In this document: one piece after another, positions 5,548 through 27,300 of the stretch
Layout of the letters: the number at the start of each line of letters is the position of its first letter
Position numbering within the stretch: position 1 is the stretch's first letter
DNA from: Propionivibrio sp.
Lineage (GTDB): Bacteria > Pseudomonadota > Gammaproteobacteria > Burkholderiales > Rhodocyclaceae
Reading direction: 5' to 3'
Assembly (NCBI RefSeq): GCF_049316945.1
Contig: NZ_JBMOJE010000012.1
Coordinates: 3,752 to 67,751, forward strand
DNA: 64,000 nt
The notes under the pieces: model-generated
Told to the model about the DNA's origin: nothing
Seen by the model: only the letters and a program-made list of their open reading frames with translations
Database searches by the model: none
Made by a program: the position numbers and the translations under genes

Positions 5548-5598
5548 CCGCTACAACGCTACAAGCTCGCTACATCTGATTTGTAGCGTTGTAGCGGC
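5548..5598. repeat. Perfect 18-bp inverted repeat (GCCGCTACAACGCTACAA / TTGTAGCGTTGTAGCGGC) built from GCTACA/TGTAGC units
   Basis: The arms are at 5548-5565 and 5581-5598 with a 15-nt loop, starting 10 nt after the primase-like stop. No adjacent T-run follows on the plus strand. It could be a terminator-like hairpin or an origin/iteron structure. Confidence 0.6.
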
Positions 5599-5650
5599 AA
5601 TTCGAGCAAACCCAAAAAAAAACGTCACGTCACGCACACATGAGGTCACC

Positions 5651-7653: not shown

Positions 7654-7664
7654 CGGCAAATTCG
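7639..7664. repeat. Second copy of the TTGTAGCG(Y)TGTAGCGGCAA(A)TTCG motif
   Basis: GTTGTAGCGCTGTAGCGGCAAATTCG spans the stop codon of the 6448-7653 gene. It matches 5581-5605 (TTGTAGCGTTGTAGCGGCAATTCG) apart from one substitution and one extra A. Confidence 0.6.
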
Positions 7665-7804
7665 GGGGACCGGTCAGTTGTATTGACGGTCCCCGTTGCA
7701 ACGTGAGGAATCTCTCCTTACTTGGCCGGCTGATCTCGGTGGGCCAGACGACGATTGAACCGCCATAGTTAACGATGCTAAACGTCCGCGCCTCACTATG
7801 CGAT

Positions 7805-8557: not shown

Positions 8558-8648
8558 GAGGTCATTATTACCCCTTTGGTTTGGAACTCATATCCGACGA
8601 CGAGTTATTTCTTGGACACGATGAGCGAAGCGAGCCGTCTGAAGTGAA

Positions 8649-10247
8649 TCAGGTCAGTCGCGCAAGCAATTCTCTGTCCGACAGCCAGCGCCGAACACTC
8701 TGCCGCAACTTGCCCTCGATGGCACAGAACGCCTCGCCGTGATGCTGCTCCCAAAGGTGCGCAAGCTCGTGAAAGGCGAGGTCGAGTAAGTCGCCATGCC
8801 GGTATCTGGTTTCGGCGGTCAGCAGCAGCGGGTTGATGAAGATGCGATGCGGACTGCCATCAATAGTAGGCGTCGAGCACAGCCCCTCGGCGTTAGCAAT
8901 GAAGCAGAACCCGACATCAACCCGGCGACCCCGAAAGCATGTCTGCGAGCCGGAAACATCAGCCCCGTTGCTCTCCCAGTCGTCGATCAACTGTCCTTGC
9001 TGATCGTAGAACGCCGCGCCATTTTTCAGCGACCAGTCACAACACAGAATCGTCGATATTGCAGCCCGCCAGCTATGGGCCAGCTTGGCAGTCCGCTGCT
9101 TGTTCATTTCGGCAACCAGCAGCGGAGCCGTGATGTACGCCTGACTATTGGCAGACCGGCGCACCGCCAGCGAATCGACCTTCAGATGAAAGTTTGCCGG
9201 ATAGCGCTCGTGCGTAATGCGCCTCAACGCCGCCGCGTACCCGGCCACCGCATCAGGTTTCGCCGTGTTCGGGCACATCAGTAGCAACGGTGCGCTTGGC
9301 GGTAGGCTCGATTCGCTGCTGGTGTCCGGTCCGCTTGAACTGCTGCTACCCGGAATGGCAGAAAAGTCGTCAAAGTTTATCGACAGGTCCAGCGCCTTTC
9401 CGTAGCGGACAGCGCTCTGGTTTTGCACCAGTTCGCCGACGATCTTGGAGAACTGGTCGCGCATGGCCGAAGTGAATCCATCGCGATTGGCGGTCAGAGC
9501 GGCGCTACCGGCATCGAGTTCGAGACCGCCGCTCAGCGCACTCTGATTGGTGCTGGAGTAGAGCGCTTCGATAAGCATCGGCAATCCGGCCACCGTAACC
9601 ACGAAGGCCGACCGACTGGCTTCTTGTTGCTCGTCGTACCAGAGGTCGCCCAGCGAAGTTTTCACCGCGAAGTCGTAGAGACCGTCGTTGTTTTGCGGTA
9701 GTACCACGCCGTCCAGAGTGATCGCCACCGGACGACCGGTCGCGAATTCCATGAAACACGCAGCGACATAGCCCTTGATTCGCTCGCGCCAGGCATCAAG
9801 CAAGCTGGAATCATCGGCCAGCTCGACCGTCATCCGCGTACCGGAAACGGTTGTCGATTCCTCAGTCAGCCGATATTCGCCGCCGCTGCCCTCGACAAGG
9901 AGATTGCGCGTGCAGATCGAGTAACGGTGATGCGCGAAAAACAGGATCGCCTTGGCGTAGCCAAATCCCCCGATGGACCCGGCCAGCTTTCGTGACCCAC
10001 CCATGCAGAGCAGGACGTTTTCCAGCGTGTCTCGGTCCATGCCGGTGCCGTCGTCGGATACATGCAGTTCGATCCGGCCAGCTTCGTTGGCTGCCAGCAG
10101 GAAGTCGATATTCGCCGCCTGCGCGTCGTAGGCGTTCTGGAGGAACTCGCGGATCATCGCCCAGCGCCAGTCGGCGTACTCGGTTTTGGCCTTCTGAAAG
10201 TAGGTATGCGGCACCTGAACTTGCCGAACATCAGTCATCGTGTTCAT
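8649..10247 (-). CDS. GHKL (Bergerat-fold, HATPase_c_3-like) ATPase fused to a SprT-like zinc metallopeptidase domain
   Basis: N-box IREFLQNAYDA, G1 box SDDGTGMD and G2 box GGFGYAK are present. The C-terminus reads HRIFINPLLL...FHELAHLWEQHHGEAF (HExxH plus a downstream His). ATG 10247 lies 10 nt after the upstream gene's TGA with GAGGGG as RBS. The 46-codon extension in the ORF track is rejected. Confidence 0.75.
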   Translation of the reverse strand: MNTMTDVRQVQVPHTYFQKAKTEYADWRWAMIREFLQNAYDAQAANIDFLLAANEAGRIELHVSDDGTGMDRDTLENVLLCMGGSRKLAGSIGGFGYAKAILFFAHHRYSICTRNLLVEGSGGEYRLTEESTTVSGTRMTVELADDSSLLDAWRERIKGYVAACFMEFATGRPVAITLDGVVLPQNNDGLYDFAVKTSLGDLWYDEQQEASRSAFVVTVAGLPMLIEALYSSTNQSALSGGLELDAGSAALTANRDGFTSAMRDQFSKIVGELVQNQSAVRYGKALDLSINFDDFSAIPGSSSSSGPDTSSESSLPPSAPLLLMCPNTAKPDAVAGYAAALRRITHERYPANFHLKVDSLAVRRSANSQAYITAPLLVAEMNKQRTAKLAHSWRAAISTILCCDWSLKNGAAFYDQQGQLIDDWESNGADVSGSQTCFRGRRVDVGFCFIANAEGLCSTPTIDGSPHRIFINPLLLTAETRYRHGDLLDLAFHELAHLWEQHHGEAFCAIEGKLRQSVRRWLSDRELLARLT

Positions 10248-10257
10248 GGCAGGCCCC

Positions 10258-11181
10258 TCAAAGCAAAGATGGAATCTGGCGGCGCTTGCCGATTCGGACG
10301 TACTTTTCGAGCGTTGCGCCCTTGTGCCCCGACACCATCGCAATGACGTGGCTCTGCACACCAGCAAGAATCCCAGCAGTGACAAAGCCTGCGCGCAAAC
10401 TGTGGCCTGAAAACAATGCCGGGTCTCGCCCCGACGATTCGATCAGTTGCTTGATGATCTTCGCGACGGCATGCGTGGAAAGCGCTCGGTTGCCGATGCT
10501 CTCGTTTTGGCCGACAGCGCGGAAAATCGGCCCGTCAGTCAGTCCAGATATTTCCTGCCAGTGTCTCAACGCTTTCACCGGGCACCGATCACCGTAGGCA
10601 TTCGGGATGAACTTCACGAACCCGGCACCGGCTTGATCGACCTTAGACGAGCGCAGCAGCAATTCCATGCCGGAATCCAACCAAGTCACACAGTCCCATG
10701 TCAGGCCGACCAACTCACTGCGACGAAACGCCCCACCCCAGCCGGTCGCGAGCAGTGCAATTGTCCGCGCCGCCCATACTGGCTTGCGCTTCGCGGCAAC
10801 GGACCACAACTCAAGCAGGATGTCTTTCTCGATGGCGCCAACCCGGCGCTGGGCAACACCGACCGACCGGCGCACGCCCTTCATGACTTGTTTTACCCGC
10901 GCATCGCTGACGGGCGACTGATAGCCCTGGTCAAGATGGCCGACGTGGATGCTTACCAGTCGCCGTTCGATAGTCGCCACGGCAAGCCTGCTGCCGATGG
11001 CCGTAACGTAGTCGACGATCTGATCGACCGTCGCCGGAATGCTTCCGCCTGCCTCAATGTAGAGGCGAACATCGTTGGCGTACTCGCGCCGGGTTGATGG
11101 CGCTCTGGTTGCTTCAAGGTATTCGACCTCGGAAAGTAAGGGGCGCACGGGTGCCTTGCGCCGATGATCGACGTTGCTCAT
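10258..11181 (-). CDS. tyrosine site-specific recombinase (second integrase-family gene in the island)
   Basis: The C-terminal SGHSLRAGFVTAG...VSGHKGATLEKYVR carries the R-H-R-Y catalytic pattern. A SAM-like N-terminal core-binding region is present. ATG 11181 lies behind AGGA. Confidence 0.8.
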   Translation of the reverse strand: MSNVDHRRKAPVRPLLSEVEYLEATRAPSTRREYANDVRLYIEAGGSIPATVDQIVDYVTAIGSRLAVATIERRLVSIHVGHLDQGYQSPVSDARVKQVMKGVRRSVGVAQRRVGAIEKDILLELWSVAAKRKPVWAARTIALLATGWGGAFRRSELVGLTWDCVTWLDSGMELLLRSSKVDQAGAGFVKFIPNAYGDRCPVKALRHWQEISGLTDGPIFRAVGQNESIGNRALSTHAVAKIIKQLIESSGRDPALFSGHSLRAGFVTAGILAGVQSHVIAMVSGHKGATLEKYVRIGKRRQIPSLL

Positions 11182-11308
11182 GATTGGATTCCTTTGTTTG
11201 TATGCCAATGGCGAGTACAAAACCGGTTTCACTAACTGTGGTTTTGTGAAACTGCTTGGCGAAAATGAAAGCGGCACGATTGCCGCTGGCGAGAACTGAC
11301 CGGGTGGC

Positions 11309-12286: not shown

Positions 12287-13567
12287 TTACTTTCTCACCC
12301 CCTGCTGAATTTCATGCAAAGTTTTCGCGAGAGAGCCGGCCAAGTCAAGAAGCTTGGGGTCCGCGCCATCGTGTTTTGAATCGGTGTCCTGCTGCCCGAA
12401 ATACCTGACAGCGAATTCTCGTTTGACTTGGTTCCGCTCGCTATCGTCGAGAGTCGCCAAGAATGGGTCTATTGATGCCAGCTCAAGCTCGGCCTGCCGG
12501 AATCGTCGCTCGTTCTTCTGGTGACGAGTTACTTGCAGTGCGGCAAACCCCGCCAACAGAATGAACGGCATGGAAATCAAGGTCTGCCGAGCGACTGTGG
12601 CCCAAGTCAAATCCTTGTCATAAGTGAAGTAGAAGAAAACAACCCCGACAGTAATCCACAAGACCAACGACGAAGACGCCACACCCTTCCAAAGCGCCGC
12701 ACGAGACCGTTCCTCGTTTGCAGTCTTTTGGTAGCCATGCGCCATGCCCGTGTCGGTAATGATACCGATCAACTTTTGCGCATGCGCTTTGAGCCCTTCC
12801 ATCGTGTCGATGATGGATTTTGTGTCCTTGTTCAGTGACTCGATAACGGTCGCATGCTCTTTGGCAGCACCGGAGGCTGCATTCTCGGCAGCTTCAGCGC
12901 GTTGCTCTTCAGCTTCCTCGAACGAGGATTGTCTCTCCTGCTCTGCTTTTGCTGCGGACTGAACGCGGCTCTGCTCAGCAGTAGAGAACTCATTTTGGCG
13001 CAACTGTTGCGCATCGGAAAACTGCTGCTGAAACGTAGCAATAGCAGTATCCAATCGCTGCTTCTGTGCAGCAATCTCAGTCGTCGCCTCCGATATTCGC
13101 TTATCGAGTGCTGCCTGCGCTTTAGCTACTTCGTCGCCGTCGACTTTCAATTCGTTGAGGTAGGTTGCCGTAGCCGTCCGATAGCTCGCAGCAACCTCTC
13201 GCATGTCATCGATGCCGGACGCGCTCTGTCGCGGAATTGCAGCAAGTTGGGCAAGGCAGTTGTCGAGATGAGTCTGCGCGTTATTCCAGTGCGCCGCATT
13301 CTTGTTGGAGACAAAACCGCTGATTTCGGCGCGGGCCTGCTGCAGATACGTGGCTACGTTATTTAGATTGCCGATCACCACCAAGAGCGGGTCAGCCTGA
13401 TTGAAGACCGTTCTTACATGAGCAACGACCGCGTTGGCTCTATCCCAATGGGCGATGGTGGTTGCATCTTGTTGGCAGGCCTCATTCGCGGATTCCAGGA
13501 ATTTGCCGATTTCGGCCAGTTCCGTGAATACCTGATGGCTCTGCATGCGCTCTGCCCATTGGCTCAT
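12287..13567 (-). CDS. coiled-coil protein with two C-terminal transmembrane helices (426 aa)
   Basis: ATG 13567 lies behind AAGGGGGA, 42 nt after the DUF499 stop with no intervening terminator. A long Ala/Glu/Gln-rich helical region is followed by LVLWITVGVVFFYFTY and ISMPFILLAGFAALQV. It is the last gene before the terminator. Confidence 0.7.
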   Translation of the reverse strand: MSQWAERMQSHQVFTELAEIGKFLESANEACQQDATTIAHWDRANAVVAHVRTVFNQADPLLVVIGNLNNVATYLQQARAEISGFVSNKNAAHWNNAQTHLDNCLAQLAAIPRQSASGIDDMREVAASYRTATATYLNELKVDGDEVAKAQAALDKRISEATTEIAAQKQRLDTAIATFQQQFSDAQQLRQNEFSTAEQSRVQSAAKAEQERQSSFEEAEEQRAEAAENAASGAAKEHATVIESLNKDTKSIIDTMEGLKAHAQKLIGIITDTGMAHGYQKTANEERSRAALWKGVASSSLVLWITVGVVFFYFTYDKDLTWATVARQTLISMPFILLAGFAALQVTRHQKNERRFRQAELELASIDPFLATLDDSERNQVKREFAVRYFGQQDTDSKHDGADPKLLDLAGSLAKTLHEIQQGVRK

Positions 13568-13609
13568 GTTGTCCCCCTTACTTCCCGCCAAGCACTCGAA
13601 GAAGGTCCA

Positions 13610-16438
13610 TCACTCGCCGTCCTCGAACTCAGCATTCTTGAACCGCAGCACGTTGCAGTTCTCCTTCACGGCGCGCTGCAATCCATCGTCGAAGCCCGTT
13701 GCCGATTCGGCCTGAATCTCAATCGCGATCCTGACCTTCACGCCGGGGCGCGACGTGAATTGCAGAACGACCTCGTCGACAAGATCAGCAAACTGCTTCT
13801 TGGCCTGAATCGCGTCGAGTTCGATGCTGCCGTAGAACTGCTTTTTCGGCGTCTGCGTCGTTGCGCCACCACCCGTTGGATAGGTCGGCTTCGCGGAATC
13901 CTCCACACGCGACGAACTACCACCGGTAGCTGCTGCCGCCGTATCGGTCGGCTTGGGTCGCGCTGCCTCGTCGGCAGCGCGCTGCGCTTCGGCGTATCCG
14001 GCAGCGGTAACGGGTTCGATCAGGAGCAGCGATGCATCAAGGAATAGCGAGGTGCGCTTGCCATAGCTGAAGCCGAGGTAGCGACCATCCTCCTTGGCCT
14101 GCGCGAAACCGAAGAAGTCGCGGCTCTCGGCACCTGCGGCCAAGGTGTGCTGAAAGGCTGAGTCATCACGAAGCCGGGGCAGATACAGTTGCTGGCATGT
14201 CTGCTGCCACACGTTGAGGGCGAGGGTTTCCTTGGCGTCCTCTTTCCAGAACCACGTCTTGAGCACCGTCGCCAAGTGGATCGGCGCCCACTCGGTAATC
14301 AGGAGTTCGTTCTCCTTGAGCACGCGCTCGATTTCTTGCGAAAGGTTCTGAGCACCGGGATTGACGGGGAAATGCTCCCACTGAATATCAGACAGGCCTT
14401 TGCCCGGACGGGCTTCCTGCATCGGCGCCACGATCCATTTATAGGTCTCGCGGATCATGCGGCGCAGTGCCTCGTTGGAATCCTCAAGGCTCTTGCTGGC
14501 CTGCCGTGCCTGGAACTGATCGAGGTTGAGCTTCATCTCCTTGATGTCGCCGACGATGGACTGCCACGCCAAGGTCGAGCGCACCTGATCCTTTAGGCGG
14601 CTCACGCTGTCGTAGTCGGCGGCGATGAAAATCAAACGGTTCTGCTTGAAGCGCGGCTGGTCGCCACGGTTTTTCAGAATCTCGGTCGCACGGTCGATGG
14701 CAAGGCTTTGGCCGCTTCGGCTGAAGGCGGCATCGGGCGGCAACACGACAAGTCGCAATTGCCAGTCGTCGGGAATATCGCCGCTCGACGTGAAGACATG
14801 AATACCGCCGAACACGCCCGTCGCAAAGCTTTTCTGCACGCGGTCACGGATGGCGGGGAATACGTCTTCCTTGTCTTGGAACCGGCGCTTGCGCTCTTCC
14901 ATTTCGCGTCGCAGGTTGGGACGTGTATCGAACCAGAAACGATTGTTGCCGCTGTTCAGGTAGTGCAGGCGGTCGCCCAAACGGCGCAACGCGTCCTTAT
15001 AGATGCCGACTTGCTGGCCCGGTTGCGCCGCGCCCAAAATGACACGTTCCAGTTCAAGGCCACGCACCATCTGGCTTGCCGTAGTCGGCGCGCTGCCCAA
15101 AAAAATGGTCCGTGCCGAACGGCGGCAGGCCTGCACCGCACCAAGACGGGTATCTCGGTTTTCGATCTCGGTGGTCTCGGCGCGCTCGCCATCCACGTCG
15201 CGCTCTACAACCGGGTCCCAGCCTTGCGGCAGGTAATAGATCACCTCGTTACGGGTGTCGGCATCTTGCAGCGGGAAGCTGCCCGGCATGATGAGTGGGT
15301 CTTTATCGTTGTCTTTCCACAGGCGATGAATCACCTTCGCCATCAGCTTCAGGACACCACGGGTCCGCTGGAAGTTATCGAGCGACGACCAGTCTTCATA
15401 AAGTCGGTCAAACACCTCCGGGTGAATCGGGTAGGCGTGCATCAAGCGGTCAAAGTAGCGGCTCTCCTGCGTCTCGCGTGGGAAGTCCTCGCCGTTGGCC
15501 GTGTAGAAGTCGGCGAACGCACGACAGACCGATTCCGCAGCCAGCTTGTCGTCAATGCTGGAGAACAGCCGGCGGCGGACAATCTCGAATGCTTCCTCGG
15601 TGCCGACAGGTTTCCAGAGGGCTTGAATGCGCCCGAAGTAGTGGGCCAAGGCGGCAAGTGCTTTCACGCCGCGCTGGCTACCCGCTTCCTTGTCCGATTC
15701 GGGCAACGAGGCCAGCAGTACGGCGTTCGGAACCGCCTTTAGTGCCTCGGTCAGCGCCTGCACAAAACTCAGATTCGAGTCGAAGCTACCGCCCGTCAGT
15801 GCCTTACCTTCTTCAAACTGGCGCACATAGGCAACCAACTCGTCGATCAGGATCACGCAGGGCGCGTAACGGCTCAGCAGAGTTTCCAGTACCGCCTTGC
15901 CTGGAGAGGTGCCGGATGAATCGGCATCGGCGACCAGCGCATAGCCTTCGGCTTTTCCCAATTGCCACGCCAGATCGCCCCAAAGGGTGCGAATCGCCTG
16001 ACCGTCGCGCATCACGGGTTGATTGGGCGATGACTTGATGCCGTCAAGTACCGCAACACGCGCACGCGGCAGTTCCGTGACGCCAGCTGCGTCAAGAATC
16101 GCCGGCACGCCGGGCAAATCGCTTGCTGATACATCACCAGTCGCGAGGTGATAGACGGCCAGCATGGTGTGCGTCTTGCCGCCGCCGAAAGCGGTTTGCA
16201 ACTGAATGACCGGATCGCCGCCTTTACCAGACAAGCGCTTGACCACGGAATCGAGCAGCAAACGCATACCCTCGGTAATGAAGGTGCGCTGGAAGAACAG
16301 TGCCGGATTCTGGTACTCGGGCGTTGCCGTGCCTTCATGAACACGAGATAAGTCAGCGGCAAACTCGGCCTGCTGAAACGTGCCCTTGAGGACATCTTCG
16401 TGCGGAACGGCGATTTCGCGCCAGGGTTTCAGGGTCAT
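13610..16438 (-). CDS. DUF499-family (BrxC/PglY-like) P-loop ATPase
   Basis: [30 protein letters not shown] is the typical DUF499 N-terminus. Walker A is [11 protein letters not shown] and Walker B is [10 protein letters not shown]. The start overlaps the upstream stop (ATGA). Confidence 0.85.
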
Positions 16439-16650
16439 GTGTTTTCTCCACTGACTTGGTCCGGAAATGGCTTGGCAAACCGCACCATGCGCCCCAGACT
16501 TTTTTCGATTTCGGTGAAGCCACTACCGTACTCGTGCACCAATTGTTGCGACAGTGTCGCAACAAACCGTTCCCCGCAAACGACCTTCTTGTCATGCGGA
16601 ACTTCGCGACGAATGCGGCTCTGCGAATTCACGCCAGAGTTTGCCTTCAT
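16435..16650 (-). CDS. 71-aa fragment of a DUF1016 (YhcG-like) N-terminal domain, lacking the PD-(D/E)xK nuclease domain
   Basis: [39 protein letters not shown] matches the remembered YG-x-x-IVATLS-x-QL-x-x-EYG-x-GF ... RM-x-x-FA-x-x-FPD block of DUF1016 proteins. ATGA overlaps occur at both ends. It may be a remnant or a mini-protein. Confidence 0.5.
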
Positions 16651-17918
16651 CCCCTTTTCTCCGTACTTGCGGCATAGATCGTCAAAACCAACTCACTGTC
16701 ATCTTTCAATCGGTACTCGGGGCGCTTCCCGGAAAGTTGCTCGCTTCGCGCCAAAATGATCGCCACCCCTTCGCCACGCTTGTCCATGATGTGGCTGCGG
16801 TGGTTGACCAACATGTCATCGATGATCGGGCAGCGGGCCAGCAGGCTGGTCAGTGCCTCGTTACGCGCTGCCTGACGGTATGGCAAGCTCTCAGGAGTCA
16901 TCGTGTTTGGCAACATGCCTGGGGAATACAACTCCAGCCTATCGTCGAACAAGCGCAGTCGCACCTTCGCCCCCGCCATGGAGTAATCCCGGTGGGCCAC
17001 TGCGTTGGTCACGGCTTCGAACACGGCCAGCATGTCGAATTGAGGCACATCCTCGCGCCCGCCCTGCGCGTGCTTGTAGGCAGCCACCCTCATGTTTTTG
17101 CGAACGAAGGCGCATGCTTCGAGAATCTGCTGATCCAGTGGGCCGCTGATGTCCTGGGCATCCTGCTGGTAAGCAGAGTCACCCTCTGGCAGAGCGTCCG
17201 TGCCCTGATACGCCACGGCCTGGATGAAGGCACCCGGCAGGTGCTGCCGTGCCGTACGACTGCTCATGAGCAATCCAGCCACCGTAGGATGCCAGTCACT
17301 CTTGTCGTCACAGGCCGCCATGGCGAGCTTGTTCAACAAGATTTCCGGCGCATCGCTGCTGTTCATCGGCGCGAAGCGCCGCCAAAGCGCCTCGTCCAGA
17401 TCGGCCAGAGTGGCGCGAGTAACCGGTGTTTCGTCAAAACGAATCAAGCGGGATTGGCTGCGCTGCTGGAATAGTCGGGCCAGTTGATCCGGTGGAATCG
17501 GACGCTTGGACGAGCCGACACGATGAAGATAACCGCCCGGGCTTTGATGGACAAACAGACTGCGCTCCACTTCCAGCCGGAACACCGGTTGTTCCGTCCC
17601 CGCGAAGTCGGGTAACGTCATACGTTCGATGATGGGAGCCAAGGGCGGTTTGATCGACTGTTCGCACGCCTGCCTTACCACCAGCTCCACGGCGTCAAGG
17701 TGTTCGATGGGGATGCCGAGCACCTCCCGGCTGGTGTCTTCCACGCCTAGCAACAGGACTCCGCCCACACTGTTGGCGAAGGCAGCCAATTCGTCGGCCA
17801 GGGCGTCCTGAGACGGCCCCCTGACCTTGCCACCAGCGAATTTCACCTCCTTCAATTCGAGATAGCTGTCCTCACCAAGCCGGATTTTTTCCAGCAATTC
17901 ACTGCGTGTTGCCAACAT
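16647..17918 (-). CDS. AlbA_2 (Schlafen-like) DNA-binding domain protein with a C-terminal HATPase_c_4-like region (often annotated RecG-like/transcriptional regulator)
   Basis: MLATRSELLEKIRLGEDSYLELKEV is the typical AlbA_2 start. AVFEAVTNAVAHRDYS...LELYSPG is the HATPase_c_4-like block. ATG 17918 lies 1 nt after the upstream TGA with GGAGG as RBS. Confidence 0.8.
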   Translation of the reverse strand: MLATRSELLEKIRLGEDSYLELKEVKFAGGKVRGPSQDALADELAAFANSVGGVLLLGVEDTSREVLGIPIEHLDAVELVVRQACEQSIKPPLAPIIERMTLPDFAGTEQPVFRLEVERSLFVHQSPGGYLHRVGSSKRPIPPDQLARLFQQRSQSRLIRFDETPVTRATLADLDEALWRRFAPMNSSDAPEILLNKLAMAACDDKSDWHPTVAGLLMSSRTARQHLPGAFIQAVAYQGTDALPEGDSAYQQDAQDISGPLDQQILEACAFVRKNMRVAAYKHAQGGREDVPQFDMLAVFEAVTNAVAHRDYSMAGAKVRLRLFDDRLELYSPGMLPNTMTPESLPYRQAARNEALTSLLARCPIIDDMLVNHRSHIMDKRGEGVAIILARSEQLSGKRPEYRLKDDSELVLTIYAASTEKRG

Positions 17919-17919
17919 G

Positions 17920-20703
17920 TCAAACCTCCGTTCCCAGGCGCTTCCAGCGTCGGGCAAAAGCCTCGTGCCCACCTTCCATCACGCGACAGACCTCTCGACG
18001 CACCGAGGCCTCCTGCAACGAGCCACTTTGTTGCACAAAGCACTGTCCGCGACCGAACTCCATGATGTGCACAAGTTCAGCATCGCCATTGACGACCACG
18101 TTCGGGTTGTGGGTCACGACGATGAGCTGGCGGCGCAGTTTGTTCTCCCGAATCTGCCGAACGATCAGGTCATAGATCAGATGGTTGTCCAGGTCGTCTT
18201 CGGGTTGATCGAGTACGATGGGCTCCTCGCCAAACGCCAACAAGAAGGCCAGCAGAGCCGCCGAACGCTGGCCCTGCGAGCCTTGACTGATGGAAGTCCA
18301 ACGGCCATCGCGCTGATACTCAATCCGCAAATCGTCTTCCGGAAACCACGCCAGAACGTGATCGTCAAACTCTGGCTTATCACTCTTGCGCTTGAGATAG
18401 TTGCGGAAGTGCCCTCCCAAGGTGGCGTCTCCGTCCAGCAAGCGGCGTTTAGCCGCTTCGAGTGCACGGGTCTTGGTGGCCTCGTCCGCCTGTGCCAGAT
18501 CGAATGCCATCCCACCCGAAGGATCGCCGTCCTCCATCAAAAGGATGTCGTCAGCAAATCTTTCGTCCGTTACGTCGATCAATTCACGCAGATCGCGCTC
18601 GATCTGCCGCGCATCGAACCCAAAGGCAACGACCGCCATGCGGACATGGGGATTACCAGCCAATGCGTTCTCAATGAACAACTGGCGCGCCTGCGTGATG
18701 GCCTGTCGCTTTCGGGCCACGAGCGCCATTTGCGCTTCAATCTGCTGCAATAGCGTCACACGGTCGCTCTGCATCTGCTTCAGCGCTTTGTGTTGTGCTT
18801 CCAGTTGTTGGCGTTCTTGAGTCAAGCGAGCGAAGGCCTGGGGGTCGTTCACTCCTTGCTGTGCGAGTTGCTGTTGCAGCGCGGCATGCGCCTGCTGTGA
18901 CGCCTGGACACGCGCCTGCCATTGCACAAACCGAGCATCCTTTGGTTGGGATTCACCGAGGGCAAAAAGCTTGCGCGCCTGTTCGAGGATGCCAATACGG
19001 ATCTGCTCGACCTGCTGATTGATCTCTGCCCGCCATGCCAGCAAACCAGCATCCTGTTCGGTGAAATGCTGGCTGGACCAATCATCCAGCACGATGAGTT
19101 CGGGCAACTCGGCAATACGAGTCGCACCATCACGCAGTTGTTCGAACAGCGTCTTGACTTCCCTGCTTTGGTGCTGCGCTTGTGCGTAGGCGCGCAGTAC
19201 CACTGCATGGTCGGTCTGCGACAAGGCAGCCAGCTTTTTCCCGGCCTCATCCAGCTTGCGCTCGACCTCCGCCTGCCCGGCCAGCTTGCCGTTTAACTCG
19301 CGCAATCGAGCGCGCTGCGTGAAGAAAGTGCGTTTCGCTTCTTCAACGGATTGCTTCAGCGGATCGACGTTGGCCGCTTCGTCGATGATGGAGAGCAGCG
19401 TCTGCCGTCCGCCGCCCGCCAACGCCGCAATCTGCCCTTGGGAAAAGATACGTAAGGGGAAACGCGCCGCATTCACACTCTGGCTGGACGATGCATGCCA
19501 TTGTCCTGCTCGCCATTCCTCGACTGCGATGTATTGGCCTTCGGGTTGCCATCGTAAACGAAGGCGCGCGTCTTCATGCTGCCATTCCAAGCCGATAGTA
19601 GTATTCGAGCGCAAGGCGCCTTTATCGTCCCGGCCATTGGCCGACTTGCAAAACGCTGCAAACTGCGCCGTTGGTTCACTCCCTTGGCCCAGCGCCACCA
19701 ATTCCTGTTCACGCCGCGCCGCCAGTCGGAGGGCGTGTACCACGGTAGATTTGCCCGTGCCACGGCCACCAACCACCGCATTGAAAAACGGAGAGCAGGC
19801 CAATCGTGCTGGCTGCCCATTGCCCATGTAGCGAGCCTGCCCGACCTCGATGGCTGTAATGATGTGGGTTGGCACCCGGAAGGGGTCAAAAGCGCCCTCG
19901 TCACTACGCCGAATCGACACGCCATTGCCATCCAGCAAGGCCAGCCGTAGCCCTTCCAGCGTTGGCGATGCCATCTTGACCCAAGTGTAGCGGCTGCCGG
20001 GAACAGCAGCCCCTTGGAAGCTGTGGCAATCGCTGCCGAGTACGCGAGCAAAGCGAGATTCGTCTTGCGCAACGCATTGCGGCCATGGCATCGACGTGTC
20101 GCACCACTCCACCGCTAGCCCCCCTCCGACCGCAATGGCCTGACGCAACGTGTTGCTGTCGAACTGGCTCTGGCTGGTCCCCGGTCGGCATTGCAGCAAA
20201 CCCTTGGCTTGGTCAGCGTGAGCAGGAATTGCAACGGCTCCGGTCGCCTGGATAGCGCGAATCACCTCGGCGATACCCATGCTGGTTACGCCGTCGCTGT
20301 CTCCCTTAGTACCCTGATAATCGACTCGGCCCAACAGGGTGTCGATGTCCCCGGACGTCGCTGCGGGATCGAAGAGAGCTAGCACGTGTACCCCACCGTT
20401 GGCCGAGATTTCCACTCCAGGAAAGATCGTCAGCTCCCGAAACCCAGCAGGCACCGGACCTGCGTTGGCCTGCTGCTTCATCGTTGCGTAGGCCGATTTG
20501 AGCCGGTCGATCCACGCGCCACTGTTGTGATCGGTCACCGCCACACAGTCAATCTCTTGAGCCATGTACTGTCGCAACCAGTCTGCCTCGGTTAACGTCA
20601 GATTCTGCTGATGCCAGGGCGTATCACGCGAGGCTGGTGTATGGGTATGGAAATCGAATTTCCACCAGCGCGAACCCGGGTACGGCCACTCCATCGTTGC
20701 CAT
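17920..20703 (-). CDS. PHP phosphoesterase domain fused to an SMC/Rad50/ABC-type ATPase with a long coiled coil (Ppl/TrlF-like)
   Basis: PHP motifs are KFDFHTHTPASRD, AVTDHNS, IPAHAD and GSDCHS. Walker A is GGRGTGKST. About 250 aa of Gln/Ala-rich coiled coil follow. The signature and Walker B read SQGQRSAALLAFLL...IVLDQPEDDLD. ATG 20703 lies behind AAGGGGGA. Confidence 0.85.
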   Translation of the reverse strand: MATMEWPYPGSRWWKFDFHTHTPASRDTPWHQQNLTLTEADWLRQYMAQEIDCVAVTDHNSGAWIDRLKSAYATMKQQANAGPVPAGFRELTIFPGVEISANGGVHVLALFDPAATSGDIDTLLGRVDYQGTKGDSDGVTSMGIAEVIRAIQATGAVAIPAHADQAKGLLQCRPGTSQSQFDSNTLRQAIAVGGGLAVEWCDTSMPWPQCVAQDESRFARVLGSDCHSFQGAAVPGSRYTWVKMASPTLEGLRLALLDGNGVSIRRSDEGAFDPFRVPTHIITAIEVGQARYMGNGQPARLACSPFFNAVVGGRGTGKSTVVHALRLAARREQELVALGQGSEPTAQFAAFCKSANGRDDKGALRSNTTIGLEWQHEDARLRLRWQPEGQYIAVEEWRAGQWHASSSQSVNAARFPLRIFSQGQIAALAGGGRQTLLSIIDEAANVDPLKQSVEEAKRTFFTQRARLRELNGKLAGQAEVERKLDEAGKKLAALSQTDHAVVLRAYAQAQHQSREVKTLFEQLRDGATRIAELPELIVLDDWSSQHFTEQDAGLLAWRAEINQQVEQIRIGILEQARKLFALGESQPKDARFVQWQARVQASQQAHAALQQQLAQQGVNDPQAFARLTQERQQLEAQHKALKQMQSDRVTLLQQIEAQMALVARKRQAITQARQLFIENALAGNPHVRMAVVAFGFDARQIERDLRELIDVTDERFADDILLMEDGDPSGGMAFDLAQADEATKTRALEAAKRRLLDGDATLGGHFRNYLKRKSDKPEFDDHVLAWFPEDDLRIEYQRDGRWTSISQGSQGQRSAALLAFLLAFGEEPIVLDQPEDDLDNHLIYDLIVRQIRENKLRRQLIVVTHNPNVVVNGDAELVHIMEFGRGQCFVQQSGSLQEASVRREVCRVMEGGHEAFARRWKRLGTEV

Positions 20704-20714
20704 GTCTTTCCCCC

Positions 20715-23651
20715 TTAAATATCCAAGGCGCCCTGCGAGCCGACCAAACCGGCGTCACCGGCAGACTGCTCAATGCTGGACCACGCCGTCACCAACTCGT
20801 TATAGGCGCGGGCCTCTTCGGCCCAGCCTTTGCGCTCGCAGAGTGTGTAGAGGCGGTAGGCCAAAGCTCGCATTGGTTCGGCACGTGCAGGCATGCGGGC
20901 CAGCAATGCACCGGCAGCGGATTCGCCCTGGCTGTTGAGTGCACGAATCAGTTGGTGCAGAGCCTCCCAAACAGGTGTGCGCGTATCGGTCTCGGGGCTC
21001 CAGTCGGCAGGCAATTCAGCCCAGCGCAGTAGGCGCAACTTGCCGGCACCGCTCTCGATCACGCCCGCATCCTGCAAACCGCCGACGCTGGTGCCTTTGG
21101 CGCGGGCCAACACGTCAGCTTCACCGTACTTGCCCTCAGCCCAACCCAGCGACTCAAACCAGTGCAGGCAGAACTGCGTGTCGTGGTCGAAATCATCCTC
21201 GGCAAAGAAGCGATTGATAAGTTGCAGCGCGGTACGCACGCTCATCGGTTTGCCGTCAGCTTCGAGAACGGCAGCGTACTGGCTGAAGATCGCCATGCCG
21301 GGGCCGATGATGGCCTGCGACAGATCGACCGGAGCAACTGGCGAATTGACGCCGCCACGGGTCATATCAAGCAGAGCTTCGGGCAGGTGAGAATTGAGTT
21401 CGCGCAGAAATTCGCGGCGGCTGACCGTGAGGGCATCGGTGGCGCGTTTTCGGCAGACGAGGACGATACTGGAGGCGAGTGCGTTGGTGCCGGAGCCGAT
21501 CATTCGGTTGCTGAGTTCGGTACGCATCGGCCAAGTGCCGGTCAAGGCAAAGCCAGCGCGAAGAACCGCATCAAGAAAGGTTTCCCAACCTGTACTGTGC
21601 GTCCCAGCTTCACCCTTAGTCTCGGCTTGCTTGAATGCGTAATAGATTGTCACCGGGAAAGCGCCATGAGCTTGTTCGGCCAGATTACGCATCGCATGCG
21701 TCATGCCATCAAGGAAGAATATTTCCGCTTCCTCTTTGCCGCCGTGGCGGTAAGAAGTGGCGACCAGTTCCTCAGCCTTCGGCACAGCCAGAGTCGCATA
21801 CAGGCTAGGGAAAATTGGTTTCAGACTCCTGCGTAACCACACGTAAAAGAAATCTGAGAGGTCGGCATAACCAATGTTGTCGTAGTACGGGGGGTCTGTA
21901 GAAACGACTTTTGCAGTACTGATAGTTTGGGTTTGGGCATCGGATTGCTCGGCATAGCCACGAGCCTGAGTCGGCATAAGTTGCAGCGCTTTATAGGCCC
22001 AATCGATCCCGCTGCTCACATTACCCGTTGAGTCAGAAAATGGATTTGTTTCCGCATAGTCCCAAGTCATGGGAATGGCTTGTCGTCCGAAGGTGTTGCG
22101 AATCAGATCTTTGCTGGAATGCCAAGTACAAATCGACGACCAGTAGTCGGACGCTTTGTCTATGGAGAAAGCCAAAAACACTCCGATTGCCTGCGCATAC
22201 GCCGTCGCGCCAGCGCCGACTTTGTCGAGCGGGAGGTCGTGGTCGAGCGCTGCGGCGGCATCAGGCCGATTTTTTTGCAAGTTGTCATTGCGCTCCCAGG
22301 TTGCAAGAGCGTCCTGCCGACAGCGCTCTATAGCCTCGGACACTAGGTCGGAAAGTGTTGTCAGCGCGACTAGCTGACGCGACGTGAAGAGGTCGCCCCA
22401 TTCCGTCAAGCCGTAGGGCACACATGTGCCGCCAGTCAGACGCGCCGGGACATTGCCCGAAGGTTTCCATGTGGGCTTCGCTAGCAAAGGGACGGTTTCG
22501 TGCTCGACAGTCGGCGCCAGATAAATGCGGCCACGCACACCTTCTGCCACAATCGCCATCAAACGAGCCCCCATTCGACCCGCTTGGCCTTCTGCCTTTA
22601 TATAGTTGCCGCTAATCGGGGTTTGCGATAACACGCAGGCGAAGTTGGCTCCGCGCCCAGGGGCCTTAGTGCCGTCAATTGCCTTGGCGGTTGGGGCTCC
22701 CGTTTTCACAGTGAAGCGATAGCAGTCCCCATCCACCACTGGCTCGACATATGCTTCCTTACCTTCCTTGCTAGACAACACGAAAGTTGAGACCAGCGGC
22801 ACTTCTGCGTGACTGAAAGCCGGATTAGGGCTTTTTACTGTTCGAGCCCATAGCCAAGCAATGACCGTCAACTTCTGCCCAAGCAAAGGCTTGAGGTCAG
22901 GACGCTCGGAAACTATCTCTGCCGTAATTTCTAATTTCGGATAAAGATGACCGATGCGCTTTTTTGCCTCAGACCTCATCCAATCGCCATAACGCCGAAC
23001 GTCCTCGGCCAGCCCCCGCGCACCCGCCCAATCCTCACTCAGGCTGCCTTGTTGGTCACCGGCCAGCCTTGGCCCGACTGGTGCGCGACCGGCAAAGCGC
23101 GGCGGGATTTCGATCATCGCTTTGTTGATTGTCACCGCCACCGGATTGAGGTCGCTGGCGTAGCTTTCTAGCCCCAAGCGCTGCGCCTCCAACGGCAACG
23201 CACCACCGCCAGCAAAGGGATCATGGAAGGCCGGCAATTTGTCTGGGTTGAACAAGTCAGCCGCCTGCGGATGCCCCTTGTTCAGCTCACAAGTCTCGCG
23301 CCAACTGCGCACGATTTCGGCACGCGCACGGGACAGCACCTCCTCGTTGTTGGTGTTCTCCCAGAGAACGAGGTCCTCGATGATCTTGAACAGCCGCTCG
23401 CGCTCGATAGCGGCCTTTTCCTTGTTCACACCGTACTTGAAGCCGCCGCCTTGCTGGTAGCCGGGATCGTTGACCATCTGCGCGAAGATCACTGCACGTG
23501 CTGCCGCAAGCGGACGTCGCGCCCACCACAAATGCAACGTGCTCGGGTGGCCGTGACGAATGGACTTTTCTTTTGCCGCTGCCACGTTAATGGCATCAAG
23601 CGGTAGGGCGACTTCGATAAGCTTCTTTGGAGTTTTGATGGTCGTGGTCAT
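20715..23651 (-). CDS. DUF1156-family DNA methyltransferase (DPPY type, N6-adenine or N4-cytosine)
   Basis: The N-terminus [45 protein letters not shown] is the DUF1156 hallmark. The SAM motif is [10 protein letters not shown] and the catalytic motif is [22 protein letters not shown]. The start overlaps the upstream stop (ATGA). Confidence 0.9.
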
Positions 23652-24352
23652 TTGTTTTCCTGCTGCTTGCTGCCTTTTGTTTTGTTGGTGCGAGGCGGGC
23701 GCTTGGGCGTAGCCGCAGCTAATTCCTTGGCCTTTTCTTCCAAAACTTCCGCGTGAATCACTCGCTCTACGATATCTATGACGGTGTTCAATGAGTCGGC
23801 AGTCGGTTGATGTCCTCTATGCATTGCGGCAGAGCCTGCCTCAAATGCAGCCTCAATAATAGGGCGTTCTTGTATGCTCAAAAGATTCGCATTTTGCAAA
23901 GCATCGAGACCCGCAACAAAACTGCCGTGATCCCCAATCTTTTTGGAGATCGCTTTGTCGATGATCGACCTTGCTCCCATCATTGCCAATCGCCTGCTGT
24001 CGGCGTGCAATGCGGTATAGACCTCATCGAGTAGCCCGTGATAACCCGGAGCCTCTCGCCGCAACAGCCAATCAGGTTTTCGCCTGGAGACTCGTGGAGG
24101 GAAATACGTCGGGGTATATCCATCCTGCGGGTCATCCTCTGAGCACCAGTCGATTCGACTCATGGCAACCTCGTTGCATCCGCAGCATTGCAGAATCCGC
24201 CAGTTGGTGCCCACCGAAACCGTGCATCGGTCTGCGTCAAAATCGCGTGATCTACGGATCAGTTTCACGACTTTGTGCAAAGTTTCTTGGCAGCATTCAT
24301 TGCAATGCGACCAAATCGGGGGCTCCGTTTTTGCTCTCGTGCCACTGGTCAT
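23648..24352 (-). CDS. zinc-ribbon plus DUF4145-like protein (234 aa) with a basic C-terminal tail
   Basis: CNECCQ...CCGCN gives a four-Cys ribbon. The helical C-terminal region ([24 protein letters not shown] ... AAMHRGH) resembles the DUF4145 domains found in R-M loci. ATGA overlaps occur at both ends. Confidence 0.65.
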
Positions 24353-27300
24353 AGCGCACTTCCGGGTTTGATGGATCGCTTCAGCAGTTCTGGCAAGTCA
24401 AGATTAATGCTGGTCACCGCCCAATCTGGTTCCTGCGTAAAAGGCGTGGACACGTAATACGGACCTTCGTGGTGATCGCCATCGACGATGACTATTGCCA
24501 GAATGAATTTGTCCTGCTGATTGAGGCCATAGAGGATTTCATTGCGGGTGACGGTAATCGTGCTTTGCCCCTTGGCGCGACCCTTGACCTCAATGTGTCG
24601 TGATGCGGGCAGCTTGCCGTCGATGGCCCTTGGCAGGCTCGTTACGTCCCAGCCACATTTCTGCGCCGATACGTCGATAACTTCATGCCCGAGTGCGCGC
24701 TCGGCATCCATCACGGCATTCATGGCGATCCACTCGACGCGTGCACGCGCATCGGCGTCGGCGCTCCATCCCGGTTGGCCTTTGCGTTGTGCCAGCAAGC
24801 CTGCCGGAATGACCAGCGCACCGCCAGCCACCACGGGTGTAGCCGAGATAACGTGGCGCATGGCGAGGAGTTCCTTTTCACGCGACTCCCGGCGTGCGGT
24901 CAGATCGTCAATTGTGCGGCGGACGTTTTCGAGCGTCAGGCGAACGTCTTTGCCGGCAGCCATGTCGTCTCCGAGCTTGATGTAGCGATCCGACCAGTAG
25001 TTGATTTCCTTGACCAGACGTTCGTGAACCGCATTCAAGGTCTTGTCGACGTGCTTTTCGCGCCGGCTTCGCACCTCGTCGAAATGTTCGGGCACGAGAT
25101 GCGTCGAAGCATGCGCCAGTGCCTGCTGTTCAAGGTTTTGCGTGATCCACGGCGCGGCAAGCACGTCTTCGATCAATGCAACGTCTGCCTTGTCGATGGG
25201 TTCAAGGTCGAGGTGAGGTGCCCAGCCGGCGTTAATTGCGCCGCCTTGCGGATCGATCTCGACGAACTGCATGCGCCGGGAGACGACGTGCGTCAGGTCG
25301 GCGCCTTCCTTTACGGAGTGGTCGATGATGAGCATGACCTTGGGCGTAATACCCATGTCGCTTGAGTCGACGAGGATTGCACCCTGCTTCAGCTTGTTGC
25401 GGTGCTGCTCCATCACAATGTCAGTCACCGACTGCATCAAGGGATGGCCGGGGTGCATCAGGCTCGCCATCGGTGCCCCGATCTTGTCGGCCACGCGGAC
25501 GAACTGCTTCTCGAAGCAGACGCGCTCATAACGGCGCAGCACCGGGTCGGCGTTGCGGCGATCCCGGCCAGTGATTTGCCGATCACGTTCGCGGATATTG
25601 GCCGGAACGTGGGTAATCTCGTAGCGGCCCTGCTCACGTGGCCGCAGTTCGCCACCCAGTCGTTGGAATGCCTGATTGAAGAATGAGCGGATGAAATAGG
25701 GCTGAAGCTTGCGCGCTTCGGCCTTTTCCATTTCCTCCTTGACGGCGAACAGGCGGCGCTCGTCCATCACTTCTTCGCATAAGGCGTTGCGCTTGATGAT
25801 GGTTTCGAGATGCTGCGTATCCAGCGCGCCTTCTACTTTGCGATGCAAGCGGGCACGAATCTCGGGGTCGTCGCCGTAGCGGATGGCTTCGATCAACAAA
25901 TCTTTGAGGCTCTTGTCCTCGAACACTTCGCCGAGAATGTCGAACACGCGACCGCCCAGTGCCTTGCGCTCGACTTCCAGTTTTTCAAAGAGGCGCTGAA
26001 AAACATCGCCTTCGCGGGTCTCGGCGGCGACCATGTTCCAGAGGTGGCATACCTCGGTCTGCCCGATACGGTGGATACGTCCGAAACGTTGCTCAAGCCG
26101 GTTCGGGTTCCACGGCAGGTCGTAGTTAACCATCAGGTTTGCGTTTTGGAGGTTCACGCCTTCGCCTGCCGCGTCGGTCGCCAGCAGCACCCGAGTGGAA
26201 GGATCGTTGCGAAATAGCTCCTGCACCTTGCGGCGATCTTCGCGTTTGACGCCGCCGTGGATCATAACCACGGATTCCTCATTGCCGATCAGGCCGCGAA
26301 TCTTGACGGCGAGGTAATTCAGCGTGTCCCGGTGCTCGGTGAAGATGATGAGCTTGCGCTGGCGACCATCGGCATCACGCATCTCCGGTGTGTTCTGGAG
26401 CAGCTTGGAAAGCTCGTCCCATTTGCGGTCTTGGCCGGAATGGACGACTTGCCGTGCTTGTTCCTCCAAGCCTTCGAGGATGATGATTTCGGCTTCGAGT
26501 TCCTGAATCGTTTGGGCGGCGGTGGCCTGATCGACGACGGCTTCCTCGAAGTTTTCGTAGTCATCCGGCGATAGTGCGTCGGCTGATTCCCAAATGTCGT
26601 CCGGTACGTTGTTGAAGGTAGTCGTGTTAAGGGTTTCAGCCAGCGAGTGCCCACGCTGGCGCAGCTTCTCGTCTTCTACACGGCGCTTGAGCTTGGAACT
26701 GCGACGCCGCAGTGACTGGTAGATCGCTTCCGGGCTGGAGGCCAATCGACGTTGCAAGGAAGTGAGTGCGAACCCGACCGTGCCCTTGCGTGCGCCATCC
26801 TGAAGCTGATCGGCGCGGTTCATTTCCTCCTTCACGTAGTCCGTGACGGCGGTGTACAGCGCGGCTTCGGGGTCAGATAGTTTGTAGTTGGCGGTGCGTG
26901 CCCGGCGCTCAGGGAACAGGGGCGAGCCATCGAACTTGAGCAGGTCTTCCTTGACCATCCGGCGCATGAGGTCGGTCACATCCACCTTGTGCGCGCCATC
27001 GCGGAACTTGCCGTAGAAACGGTCGGAGTCCAGCAGCGACATGAACAACTGGAAATCTTCCTCCTTGCCGTTGTGGGGCGTGGCGGTCATTAGCAGGAAG
27101 TGACGGGTAATCGACCCCAGCAACTCGCCAAGCAGGAAACGCTTGGTCTTATTGACCTTGTTGCCGAAGTAGCTGGCCGAGAGCTTGTGCGCTTCATCGA
27201 CGACGATCAGGTCCCAATGCGACAGGCGCAGCTTTTCCTGTAGGTCTTCGGCGCGGGACAGTTGATCGACGCGGGCAACCATCAGGTCGATGTCGTCGAA

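Follow-up and report, generated by a model that had tools for sequence, protein, structure and literature searches.

An Hma operon of Propionivibrio sp. with a TrlF/Ppl and Schlatpase gene pair in its variable hmaB-hmaC slot

The defense system Hma was defined by Payne et al. in 2021 (PMC8565338) and has been re-described as a type-1 DUF499-centered BREX-related system (PMC12839542). The NOV_C domain of HmaA is a nickase, and hmaA alone is protective against T4 (Liu et al. 2024, PMC11232893). Genes embedded within the operon were counted in 62.7% of 1,485 Hma systems, and 22.8% of the embedded genes were known defenses, in a study that explicitly discusses the analogy to PrrC within EcoprrI (Payne et al. 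2024, bioRxiv 10.1101/2024.01.29.577857). A separate account gives insertions in 66.5% of hma loci and names Septu, PARIS and Ppl among them (PMC11232893). For Halomonas, the presence of Ppl in hma loci has been reported explicitly. Here we describe an Hma operon from Propionivibrio sp. in which two genes, one for a TrlF/Ppl-family protein and one for a Schlafen-type protein known as a Schlatpase, stand between hmaB and hmaC. The operon lies in a stretch of 64,000 nucleotides (contig NZ_JBMOJE010000012.1, positions 3,752 to 67,751), which we call the window and whose numbering is used for its coordinates throughout.

The Ppl protein of Escherichia coli was reportedly presented by Millman et al. 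in 2022 as a single-gene defense, and the name TrlF is said to have been introduced by Krishnan et al. in 2020. According to a review, E. coli Ppl is a single-gene system with 3'-5' exonuclease activity on single-stranded DNA; it requires 3'-OH ends, and bound nucleoside triphosphates (NTPs) inhibit its PHP and NTPase domains (PMC12904381). Bacterial Schlafens defend via tRNA cleavage, their catalytic motif has been defined as Ex4(E/D)xK, and Slfn-HisKinase is their most common architecture (Taboada et al., bioRxiv 10.1101/2025.07.24.666596). Schlafen-HisKinase genes are embedded in BREX/BR loci of no fewer than 1017 taxa, and in these loci their presumed role is that of backup effectors (PMC12839542). 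The name Schlatpase, for the combination of AlbA_2 and GHKL domains, comes from the work of Kuzmenko et al. on SLFN-pAgo (bioRxiv 10.64898/2026.05.29.728809).

Our overall reading, which we hold to be probable, is that a mobile two-gene defense cassette fills the hmaB-hmaC slot of a complete Hma operon. The features of the locus are listed below in the order in which the operon reads.

27888-28781, minus strand: WYL-domain regulator, 5' of hmaA (Pfam WYL, 1.9e-12)
24349-27885, minus strand: HmaA, SNF2 helicase with a C-terminal NOV_C (PD-(D/E)xK) nuclease (PADLOC HmaA, Pfam)
23648-24352, minus strand: DUF4145 gene, 234 aa, in the hmaA-hmaB slot (Pfam DUF4145, 3e-09)
20715-23651, minus strand: HmaB, DUF1156 DNA methyltransferase (PADLOC HmaB)
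17920-20703, minus strand: TrlF/Ppl-family PHP plus SMC-like ATPase, 927 aa (NCBIfam, PADLOC)
16647-17918, minus strand: Schlatpase, AlbA_2 plus HATPase_c_4, 423 aa (Pfam)
16435-16650, minus strand: chimeric open reading frame (ORF) with a DUF1016_N fragment, 71 aa (Pfam, PADLOC)
16610-16650, minus strand: hmaC 5' remnant, ~41 nt, frame-shifted (colinearity with locus L172, alignment with locus L167)
16456-16617, minus strand: internal DUF1016_N segment (59% aa and 75% nt identity to the DUF1016 gene of locus L002)
13610-16438, minus strand: HmaC, DUF499 ATPase, intact (PADLOC HmaC)

Judged by its profile matches, the locus appears to be a complete Hma operon composed of the WYL regulator, HmaA, HmaB, and HmaC. 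HmaA matched the PADLOC HmaA profile with 2154 bits over profile positions 1-1172 of 1176, and Pfam SNF2-rel_dom, Helicase_C and NOV_C were matched as well. HmaB and HmaC matched their PADLOC profiles over the full length, with 1768 and 1589 bits, respectively, and HmaC is 92% identical over residues 1-941 to that of L002, one of the relatives surveyed below. The three core genes stand on one strand in the canonical order hmaA-hmaB-hmaC with coupled junctions, and the cassette is nested between them in the same orientation, all of which is as in described Hma systems. A WYL homolog (46 to 94% identity) also lies 5' of HmaA in about 25 relatives. MADS was considered as the host system and rejected, given a PADLOC mad3 match that was weak and covered the ATPase part only, versus full-length Hma matches.

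The initial annotation of this DNA had described a gap of 4.3 kb between the DUF1156 and DUF499 genes that held three ORFs joined by 1-nt and ATGA junctions. Direct reading of the sequence confirmed both points, as the interval 16435-20703 is exactly that of the three middle genes and the distance from the HmaB stop to the HmaC start is 4,276 bp. The TAA of hmaB is followed by 11 nt (GGGGGAAAGAC), within which a ribosome-binding-site (RBS)-like GGGGGAAAG is found, and then by the ATG of the 927-aa gene. A single nucleotide separates the TGA of the latter from the ATG of the 423-aa gene, and ATGA overlaps join the 423-aa gene to the 71-aa ORF and the 71-aa ORF to hmaC. The same ATGA coupling is seen at the hmaA/DUF4145 and DUF4145/hmaB junctions. 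The same seven genes were predicted independently on a public contig that contains this sequence. A scan for promoters and terminators from 11.5 to 30.5 kb gave counts equal to the shuffled expectation and was uninformative on internal promoters.

Evidence on the nature of the cassette came from a survey of relatives, limited to one genome per species, which yielded 80 loci with an HmaC 72 to 92% identical to that of the window. The hmaB-hmaC interval was measurable in 73 of them. In 27 of these 73 close relatives hmaB and hmaC are adjacent (13 to 31 bp apart), and in 46 the slot is occupied by 0.5 to 7.2 kb of DNA; cassettes other than Ppl plus Schlatpase account for 40 of the 73. Because 27 of the slots are empty and only 6 hold Ppl plus Schlatpase, the block is an insertion in a hot slot and not a part of the Hma core, and it is almost certain that the cassette is non-core and mobile. 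Such a survey of homologous DUF1156/DUF499 loci had been proposed in the initial annotation, with adjacency of the two genes to be taken as the sign of an insertion and the same genes in most loci as the sign of a core component; the former was found, and the latter was not.

The contents of the occupied slots are diverse. HEC-02-type ABC ATPases, mostly with a small partner gene, were found in 17, HEC-05 GmrSD-like genes in 9, DUF1016/PDC-S02 genes in 9 (eight of full length, at 355 to 374 aa, and one truncated to 229 aa), PDC-M61A/B in 6, and Ppl plus the AlbA_2/HATPase_c_4 protein in 6. A seventh Ppl plus Schlatpase locus in the survey, L020, is on a contig without hmaB. Stacked arrays of two to four cassettes per slot occur in L056, L058, L061, L063, L071, and L075. 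Two of these arrays, L061 at 2808-10000 and L063 at 4087-10000 of the respective loci, carry three to four cassettes (DUF1016, HEC-05, HEC-02, PDC-M61) in one hmaB-hmaC slot, and the truncated 229-aa DUF1016 gene belongs to the L063 array. In its contents, the hmaB-hmaC slot behaves like a small defense island within the operon. The hmaA-hmaB slot is likewise variable, containing HEC-08, HEC-09 NYN, Septu, or DUF4145. The DUF4145 gene of the window, which has a weak PADLOC PDC-S70 match and a counterpart of the same family in the hmaA-hmaB slot of L013 and L021, is a second, separate embedded gene in that other Hma slot.

The empty loci also show how the operon accommodates an insertion. In them the stop codon of hmaB leads through an RBS-like GGGGAA to the ATG of hmaC; a similar junction is present 5' of the window ppl, and the last cassette gene in relatives is ATGA-coupled to hmaC. 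Because the RBS junction on the hmaB side and the ATGA into hmaC are both retained, the insertion keeps the translational coupling of the operon. The defense-within-defense arrangement put forward in the initial annotation is thus supported by a complete Hma host and by slot contents that vary, and its statement that AlbA_2 and DUF1016 genes are frequent passengers is borne out by the survey and by the literature (PMC12839542). The arrangement is not a new one, in that the embedding of genes in Hma, the occurrence of Ppl in hma, and the analogy to PrrC have all been published (bioRxiv 10.1101/2024.01.29.577857; PMC11232893). The relatives carry the published embedded candidates HEC-02, HEC-05, HEC-08, HEC-09, Septu, PDC-S02, and PDC-M61. 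Two features differ from the published accounts that we found: those accounts treat Ppl as a single embedded gene, whereas here the Schlatpase always follows, and the window locus also bears the scar of a second cassette.

The 927-aa protein matched NCBIfam TrlF_fam_ATP with 605.6 bits (2.6e-181) against a cut-off of 350, and it matched PADLOC Ppl over its full length (2e-133), so that the Ppl/TrlF label given to it in the initial annotation is right. Like E. coli Ppl and TrlF proteins (NCBIfam NF045780), it combines a PHP domain with an ABC/SMC-type ATPase, has the same length, matches the full profile, and has the motifs in place. Unlike E. coli Ppl, with which it shares about 30% identity, it belongs to a TrlF subclade with a tightly linked Schlatpase in about 70% of loci. 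The Pfam PHP model gave no match within residues 1-290 at E values up to 10, and the PHP domain was therefore assigned through its ligands and a fold search. Candidate metal ligands H19, H21, D58, H59, E98, H106, H162, D164, D225, and H227 are invariant in 41 homologs, a sub-threshold match to CehA/McbA metallohydrolases covers residues 12-261, and the phosphoesterase would span approximately residues 15-230. An AlphaFold2 (AF2) model was built from database homologs, with a mean predicted local distance difference test (pLDDT) score of 75.6, and shows an α/β N-domain followed by an ABC head that is split by about 250 residues of helical coiled coil. In Foldseek searches the modeled N-domain matched the PHP domains of RNase AM (7ug9, E = 1.8e-5, TM score 0.55; 9etk), BAD_1165, and EndoQ. 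Together the ligands, the CehA/McbA match, and the modeled fold indicate that an N-terminal PHP fold is present.

In the ATPase part, the Walker A motif GGRGTGKS (residues 312-319), the signature SQGQR (809-813), the Walker B motif DQPE (832-835), and H865 are invariant, and Foldseek matched the heads of MukB, Smc, JetC, Rad50, and RecN with E values of 3e-10 to 1e-6. A PDB sequence search returned no solved Ppl relative, and only generic SMC/AriA matches. The initial annotation had likened the protein to an SbcCD-type nuclease with a PHP domain in place of the Mre11-type subunit. That likeness holds for the architecture, which pairs a Rad50-like head (Foldseek Rad50 matches, E values of 1e-7 to 1e-4) and a coiled coil with a putative metal-dependent phosphoesterase acting at DNA ends; it does not hold as family membership. 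The PHP domain of the window protein is fused in cis, whereas the calcineurin-fold Mre11/SbcD is a separate protein, and the coiled-coil region, at about 250 aa, is much shorter, so the resemblance is one of architecture only.

The 423-aa protein matched Pfam SLFN_AlbA_2 (PF04326) over residues 16-141 (1.3e-13, 51.9 bits against a cut-off of 25.3) and HATPase_c_4 (PF13749) over residues 316-412 (1.3e-19, 70.4 bits against a cut-off of 26), which is the domain order of a Schlatpase. There is no space for the C-terminal helix-turn-helix (HTH) domain that is common in its family. The Ex4ExK motif, E16-DSYL-E21-L-K23, aligns with the active-site segment SESASIEFK of rat SLFN13. Across 55 Ppl partners E21 never varies, E16 and K23 are conserved in at least 90%, and the GHKL N-box residues E301 and N305 are invariant in Schlatpase homologs. 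Both the order of an Ex4ExK AlbA_2 domain followed by a PF13749 GHKL domain with an E...N box and the defense-island and embedded context are shared with the Schlatpase of SLFN-pAgo (RzAgo) and with pSlfn-HisKinase. The window protein differs from those in being stand-alone and in lacking a sensor domain of the Argonaute, Ig-like, or HTH type. A presumed sensor would need to act in trans, a role for which Ppl is the evident candidate.

The association of the two genes was examined beyond Hma by a metagenome scan with a Ppl alignment, which gave 80 loci with a Ppl 47 to 76% identical to that of the window. The Schlatpase gene lies directly 3' of Ppl in 52 of 74 evaluable metagenomic loci, or in 44 of 63 after de-replication at 97%. 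The spacing is 1 to 4 nt in most pairs, and 1 to 4 nt or an overlap in nearly all. Recognizable Hma loci make up 15 of the 44 paired de-replicated loci, and within the survey of hma loci the Schlatpase comes directly after Ppl in every Ppl-bearing Hma locus. Six further loci were looked up from homologs of the two proteins (77 to 88% identity for the Schlatpase and 95% for Ppl). All six, which include Methylococcus capsulatus and Acidithiobacillus, are Hma-type and read HmaB-Ppl-Schlatpase-ATGA-HmaC.

The cassette occurs outside Hma too, as an embedded unit that is autonomous of its host would. Paired loci were found in BREX between PglX and PglZ/BrxL (L118, L128), in type I restriction-modification (R-M) systems, after HsdR among them (L142, L133), beside a DUF4011 helicase-nuclease (L082), in distant DUF499 systems (L100, L121), and beside the non-defense genes AcrB or multicopper oxidase (L149, L140). 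A neighbor-joining tree built from 91 Ppl sequences has paired loci from its deepest branches onward, and losses are clade-wise. One clade without a Schlatpase is made up of Ppl homologs at 58 to 62% identity; in the three of its loci examined for neighbors (L113, L116, L119), Ppl is nested in a type I R-M operon, between HsdM and HsdS. The distances between pairs of Ppl proteins correlate with those between their Schlatpases (r = 0.91, 55 pairs), and the Schlatpase is the more conserved partner. With this linkage and co-divergence, Ppl and the Schlatpase are very likely one inherited unit, and the conserved partner gene speaks against regarding Ppl as strictly a single-gene system in this clade.

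What the pair might do can be sketched from its characterized relatives. By analogy with E. coli Ppl, the TrlF/Ppl protein would be a DNA-end-dependent 3'-5' exonuclease held off by bound NTPs, and nucleotide depletion on infection would release it to attack or sense DNA 3' ends. By analogy with SLFN-pAgo and bacterial Schlafens, the Schlatpase would oligomerize on ATP and cut tRNA, leading to abortive infection or growth arrest. The pair would then constitute one second-line defense with a DNA-sensing or DNA-degrading arm and a translation-shutoff arm, and the cassette would be co-transcribed and translationally coupled with Hma while working independently of it in mechanism. Functional cooperation between the two proteins seems to us plausible, with doubt slightly outweighing confidence. 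More tentatively, the pair may be an undescribed two-component system in which the PHP-SMC protein senses 3' ends and/or NTP depletion and licenses a sensor-less Schlafen-GHKL RNase. DNA-end degradation and tRNA cleavage would in that case be triggered together, by a portable backup module in methylation-based systems.

Several points weigh against cooperation, and some of them equally favor the leading alternative, which is that Ppl and the Schlatpase are independent single-gene defenses, co-transferred through a recombination-prone slot and functionally uncoupled. The E. coli Ppl is a solo gene that acts alone and has no Schlatpase neighbor. The Schlatpase is absent from 19 of the 63 de-replicated Ppl loci (about 30%), which weakens the case for obligate cooperation, and no constant substitute partner was found beside Ppl in the loci without it. 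Schlafen-HisKinase proteins are for their part widespread alone, as in the BREX/BR loci cited above. The co-divergence of Ppl and the Schlatpase is a sign of co-inheritance, not of physical or functional interaction. In addition, the biochemistry of Ppl is transferred here by extrapolation, because the 927-aa protein reached 517.5 bits against the cut-off of 1000 for the NCBIfam Ppl_antiphage equivalog (NF042955) and is about 30% identical to the proteins named "anti-phage protein Ppl" by PGAP on enterobacterial plasmids. The AF2 model of the Schlatpase had a mean pLDDT of 50, too poor for Foldseek, and was left unused; no tested stand-alone Schlatpase was found in the literature search; and co-transcription with Hma is suggested by the tight junctions only. 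No paper describing cooperation of Ppl and a Schlatpase was found in a search that did not cover Krishnan et al. 2020, where the pairing may already have been described.

Set against the independence of the two genes are the spacing of 1 to 4 nt or overlap in nearly all pairs, an order and orientation that stay constant across at least five unrelated genomic contexts, pairing that extends to the deepest branches of the Ppl tree together with the distance correlation of 0.91, and a Schlatpase subfamily that was never seen without Ppl in Hma loci. We therefore regard independence as unlikely.

A second alternative is that the cassette is a guard in the manner of PrrC, restrained by Hma or another methylation system and freed by a phage anti-restriction protein. 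The pair is found mostly within methylation-based systems (Hma, BREX, and type I R-M), it is co-oriented and translationally coupled with its host operon, and anti-restriction proteins are the trigger of such ABC-ATPase defenses as PrrC, PARIS, and Gabija (10.1101/2024.01.29.577857). With PrrC in EcoprrI the cassette has in common an ABC-ATPase second-line defense nested in a modification system and a possible tRNA-cleaving outcome. It differs in its predicted PHP and Schlafen chemistry, as opposed to the HEPN-like PrrC, and in not being tied to one host system, and the likeness to PrrC is one of nesting only. Because the pair is found in three host systems unrelated to one another and, with no R-M nearby, beside AcrB or multicopper oxidase, a specific restraint is unlikely, and Ppl is autonomous in E. 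coli (PMC12904381). A guard function is thus rather improbable, and a cassette that is independent of its host in mechanism is the reading with which we proceed.

The initial annotation had counted a third gene in the insert, encoding a DUF1016-N fragment. The two-gene cassette stands; the third gene is best interpreted, from its composition, as a recombination scar that is confined to this lineage, not as a gene or a DUF1016 nuclease. Residues 12-65 of the 71-aa ORF match DUF1016_N positions 31-82 of 137 (7e-07, 29.8 bits, under the cut-off of 32.8), and PADLOC PDC-S02 was matched at 8.6e-13. The matching piece corresponds approximately to residues 43-106 of the full-length relatives (355 to 374 aa), and its best match, at the identities listed above, is L002. 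A Pfam search found no YhcG_C PD-(D/E)xK domain in the ORF, which accordingly lacks what defines a DUF1016/YhcG nuclease. It shares with DUF1016/YhcG (PDC-S02) proteins, whose full-length genes occupy the same slot in eight relatives and in truncated form in a ninth, a part of the N-domain; it is unlike them in lacking the first ~42 residues and the YhcG_C domain and hence is no functional member of that group. None of the other Ppl-Schlatpase loci examined has the ORF, not even L172 with its 95%-identical Ppl.

Comparison with relatives revealed how the ORF is composed. The DNA of the window and of L172 is colinear from hmaB to approximately 37 nt past the Schlatpase stop, ending at window position 16614. 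Those ~37 nt are the start of hmaC in L172, and the two sequences become homologous again 11 nt upstream of where hmaC really begins. Over its first 41 nt the ORF consists of an L167-type hmaC 5' end with a 1-nt deletion, sharing TCGCAGAGCCGCATTC (alignment A4), and against the hmaC of L067 the remnant matches at 24 of 26 nt (E = 9e-5). A genome-wide position weight matrix scan for the hmaC start was not significant alone; the remnant is established by the colinearity with L172 and L167. At a 7-nt microhomology, CGCATTC, the remnant meets the DUF1016 segment, so that the chimera reads Schlatpase, ATGA, hmaC' (nt 1-41), DUF1016 (residues ~54-106), ~20 nt, ATGA, hmaC. A Ppl-Schlatpase-hmaC' (41 nt) arrangement was probably joined through the microhomology into a DUF1016 gene that preceded another hmaC, with a further deletion afterwards that retained the ATGA coupling into hmaC. 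That the ORF instead encodes a functional small protein maintained by selection, for example a translational coupler, a regulator, or an antitoxin, has in its favor the open frame and an ATGA at both ends, by which ribosomes could pass from the Schlatpase to hmaC. It is very improbable for an ORF that is unique to the lineage, missing even beside a 95%-identical Ppl, assembled from the frame-shifted beginning of hmaC and a piece from inside DUF1016_N, and scored under the Pfam cut-off.

Lowest in probability, and close to refuted already, is the suggestion in the initial annotation that the PHP-SMC protein may serve the methylation system as its executioner nuclease, for which its position between methylase and ATPase in one operon might speak: Hma needs no borrowed nuclease because HmaA carries its own NOV_C nickase and protects alone against T4 (PMC11232893), the slot is empty in 27 and holds unrelated cassettes in 40 of the 73 relatives, and Ppl is common outside Hma.

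A sliding-window comparison of positions 13610-27885 with L002, L172, and L167 revealed a mosaic backbone. HmaA and HmaC are closest to those of L002 (mostly 90 to 100% aa identity), in whose two slots the different cassettes HEC-08 and a full DUF1016 gene are found, and the hmaB-ppl-slfn segment is closest to that of L172 (Ppl, 95% aa identity). Descent of the DUF1016 piece from the L002 gene was rejected as too simple a story, its 59% aa identity contrasting with the mostly 90 to 100% of HmaA and HmaC. L002 is labelled as a Chitinophagaceae metagenome-assembled genome, whereas most other relatives are Betaproteobacteria, and the mismatch points to horizontal transfer or a binning error. Residues ~300-600 of HmaB are 37 to 79% identical to relatives (mostly 44 to 66%), as against 80 to 98% for the flanks in most relatives; this variable center is probably a nested target-recognition domain, swapped by recombination alongside the cassettes. 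The mosaic pattern fits frequent recombination between conserved hma arms, by which methylase specificity and cassettes would be shuffled. A recurrent boundary signal, in the form of copies of the hmaC 5' or hmaB 3' end, was sought in the 46 occupied slots, and an hmaC remnant was found in the window and in L026 only, for which reason an integron-like recurrent insertion site was rejected. The L026 remnant, at 9121-9151 of that locus, matches the hmaC 5' end at 27 of 31 nt, is located at the end of one embedded ORF and ahead of a reverse-oriented 238-aa gene, and is another recombination or insertion scar.

There are signs that the Hma operon resides on an integrase-bearing genomic island bounded by ribBA. 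The features on which this is based are as follows.

1540-2823: P4-type integrase with an Arm-DNA-binding domain
3714-5537: DUF3631
7805-8557: EEP-family nuclease/phosphatase
8649-10385: GHKL HATPase_c_3 protein
10258-11277: second integrase
31042-32169: ribBA, apparent chromosomal flank

Directly 3' of hmaC is a 434-aa ORF (12287-13591, minus strand) with no Pfam or PADLOC family and a weak Rad50-like coiled-coil match, which was found downstream of hmaC in no relative. A TIR-domain gene takes the position directly 3' of hmaC in Methylococcus capsulatus and is found ~2.5 kb downstream in L167, so that variability seems to extend to the region 3' of hmaC. Just upstream of the WYL regulator, a 229-aa ORF (28880-29569, minus strand) gave a strong match to the Tubulin/FtsZ GTPase domain (PF00091, 8e-23); it is short for FtsZ/TubZ and may be a fragment or a small tubulin-like gene of the island. 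The sole tRNA gene in the window, for tRNA-Sec (anticodon TCA; 44403-44490, minus strand), is unrelated to the cassette.

The nesting of defenses in Hma and other BREX-related operons, Ppl included, is already published, and in that respect the locus mainly confirms what was known. What the locus and its relatives provide in addition is a natural series, from the empty slot through alternative and stacked cassettes to a microhomology scar, which shows turnover by recombination of the hma arms. If Ppl and the Schlatpase do cooperate, stand-alone Schlatpases would gain a concrete partner and trigger, and in many bacteria, Methylococcus capsulatus and Acidithiobacillus among them, Ppl would have to be regarded as a two-gene system rather than a single-gene one.

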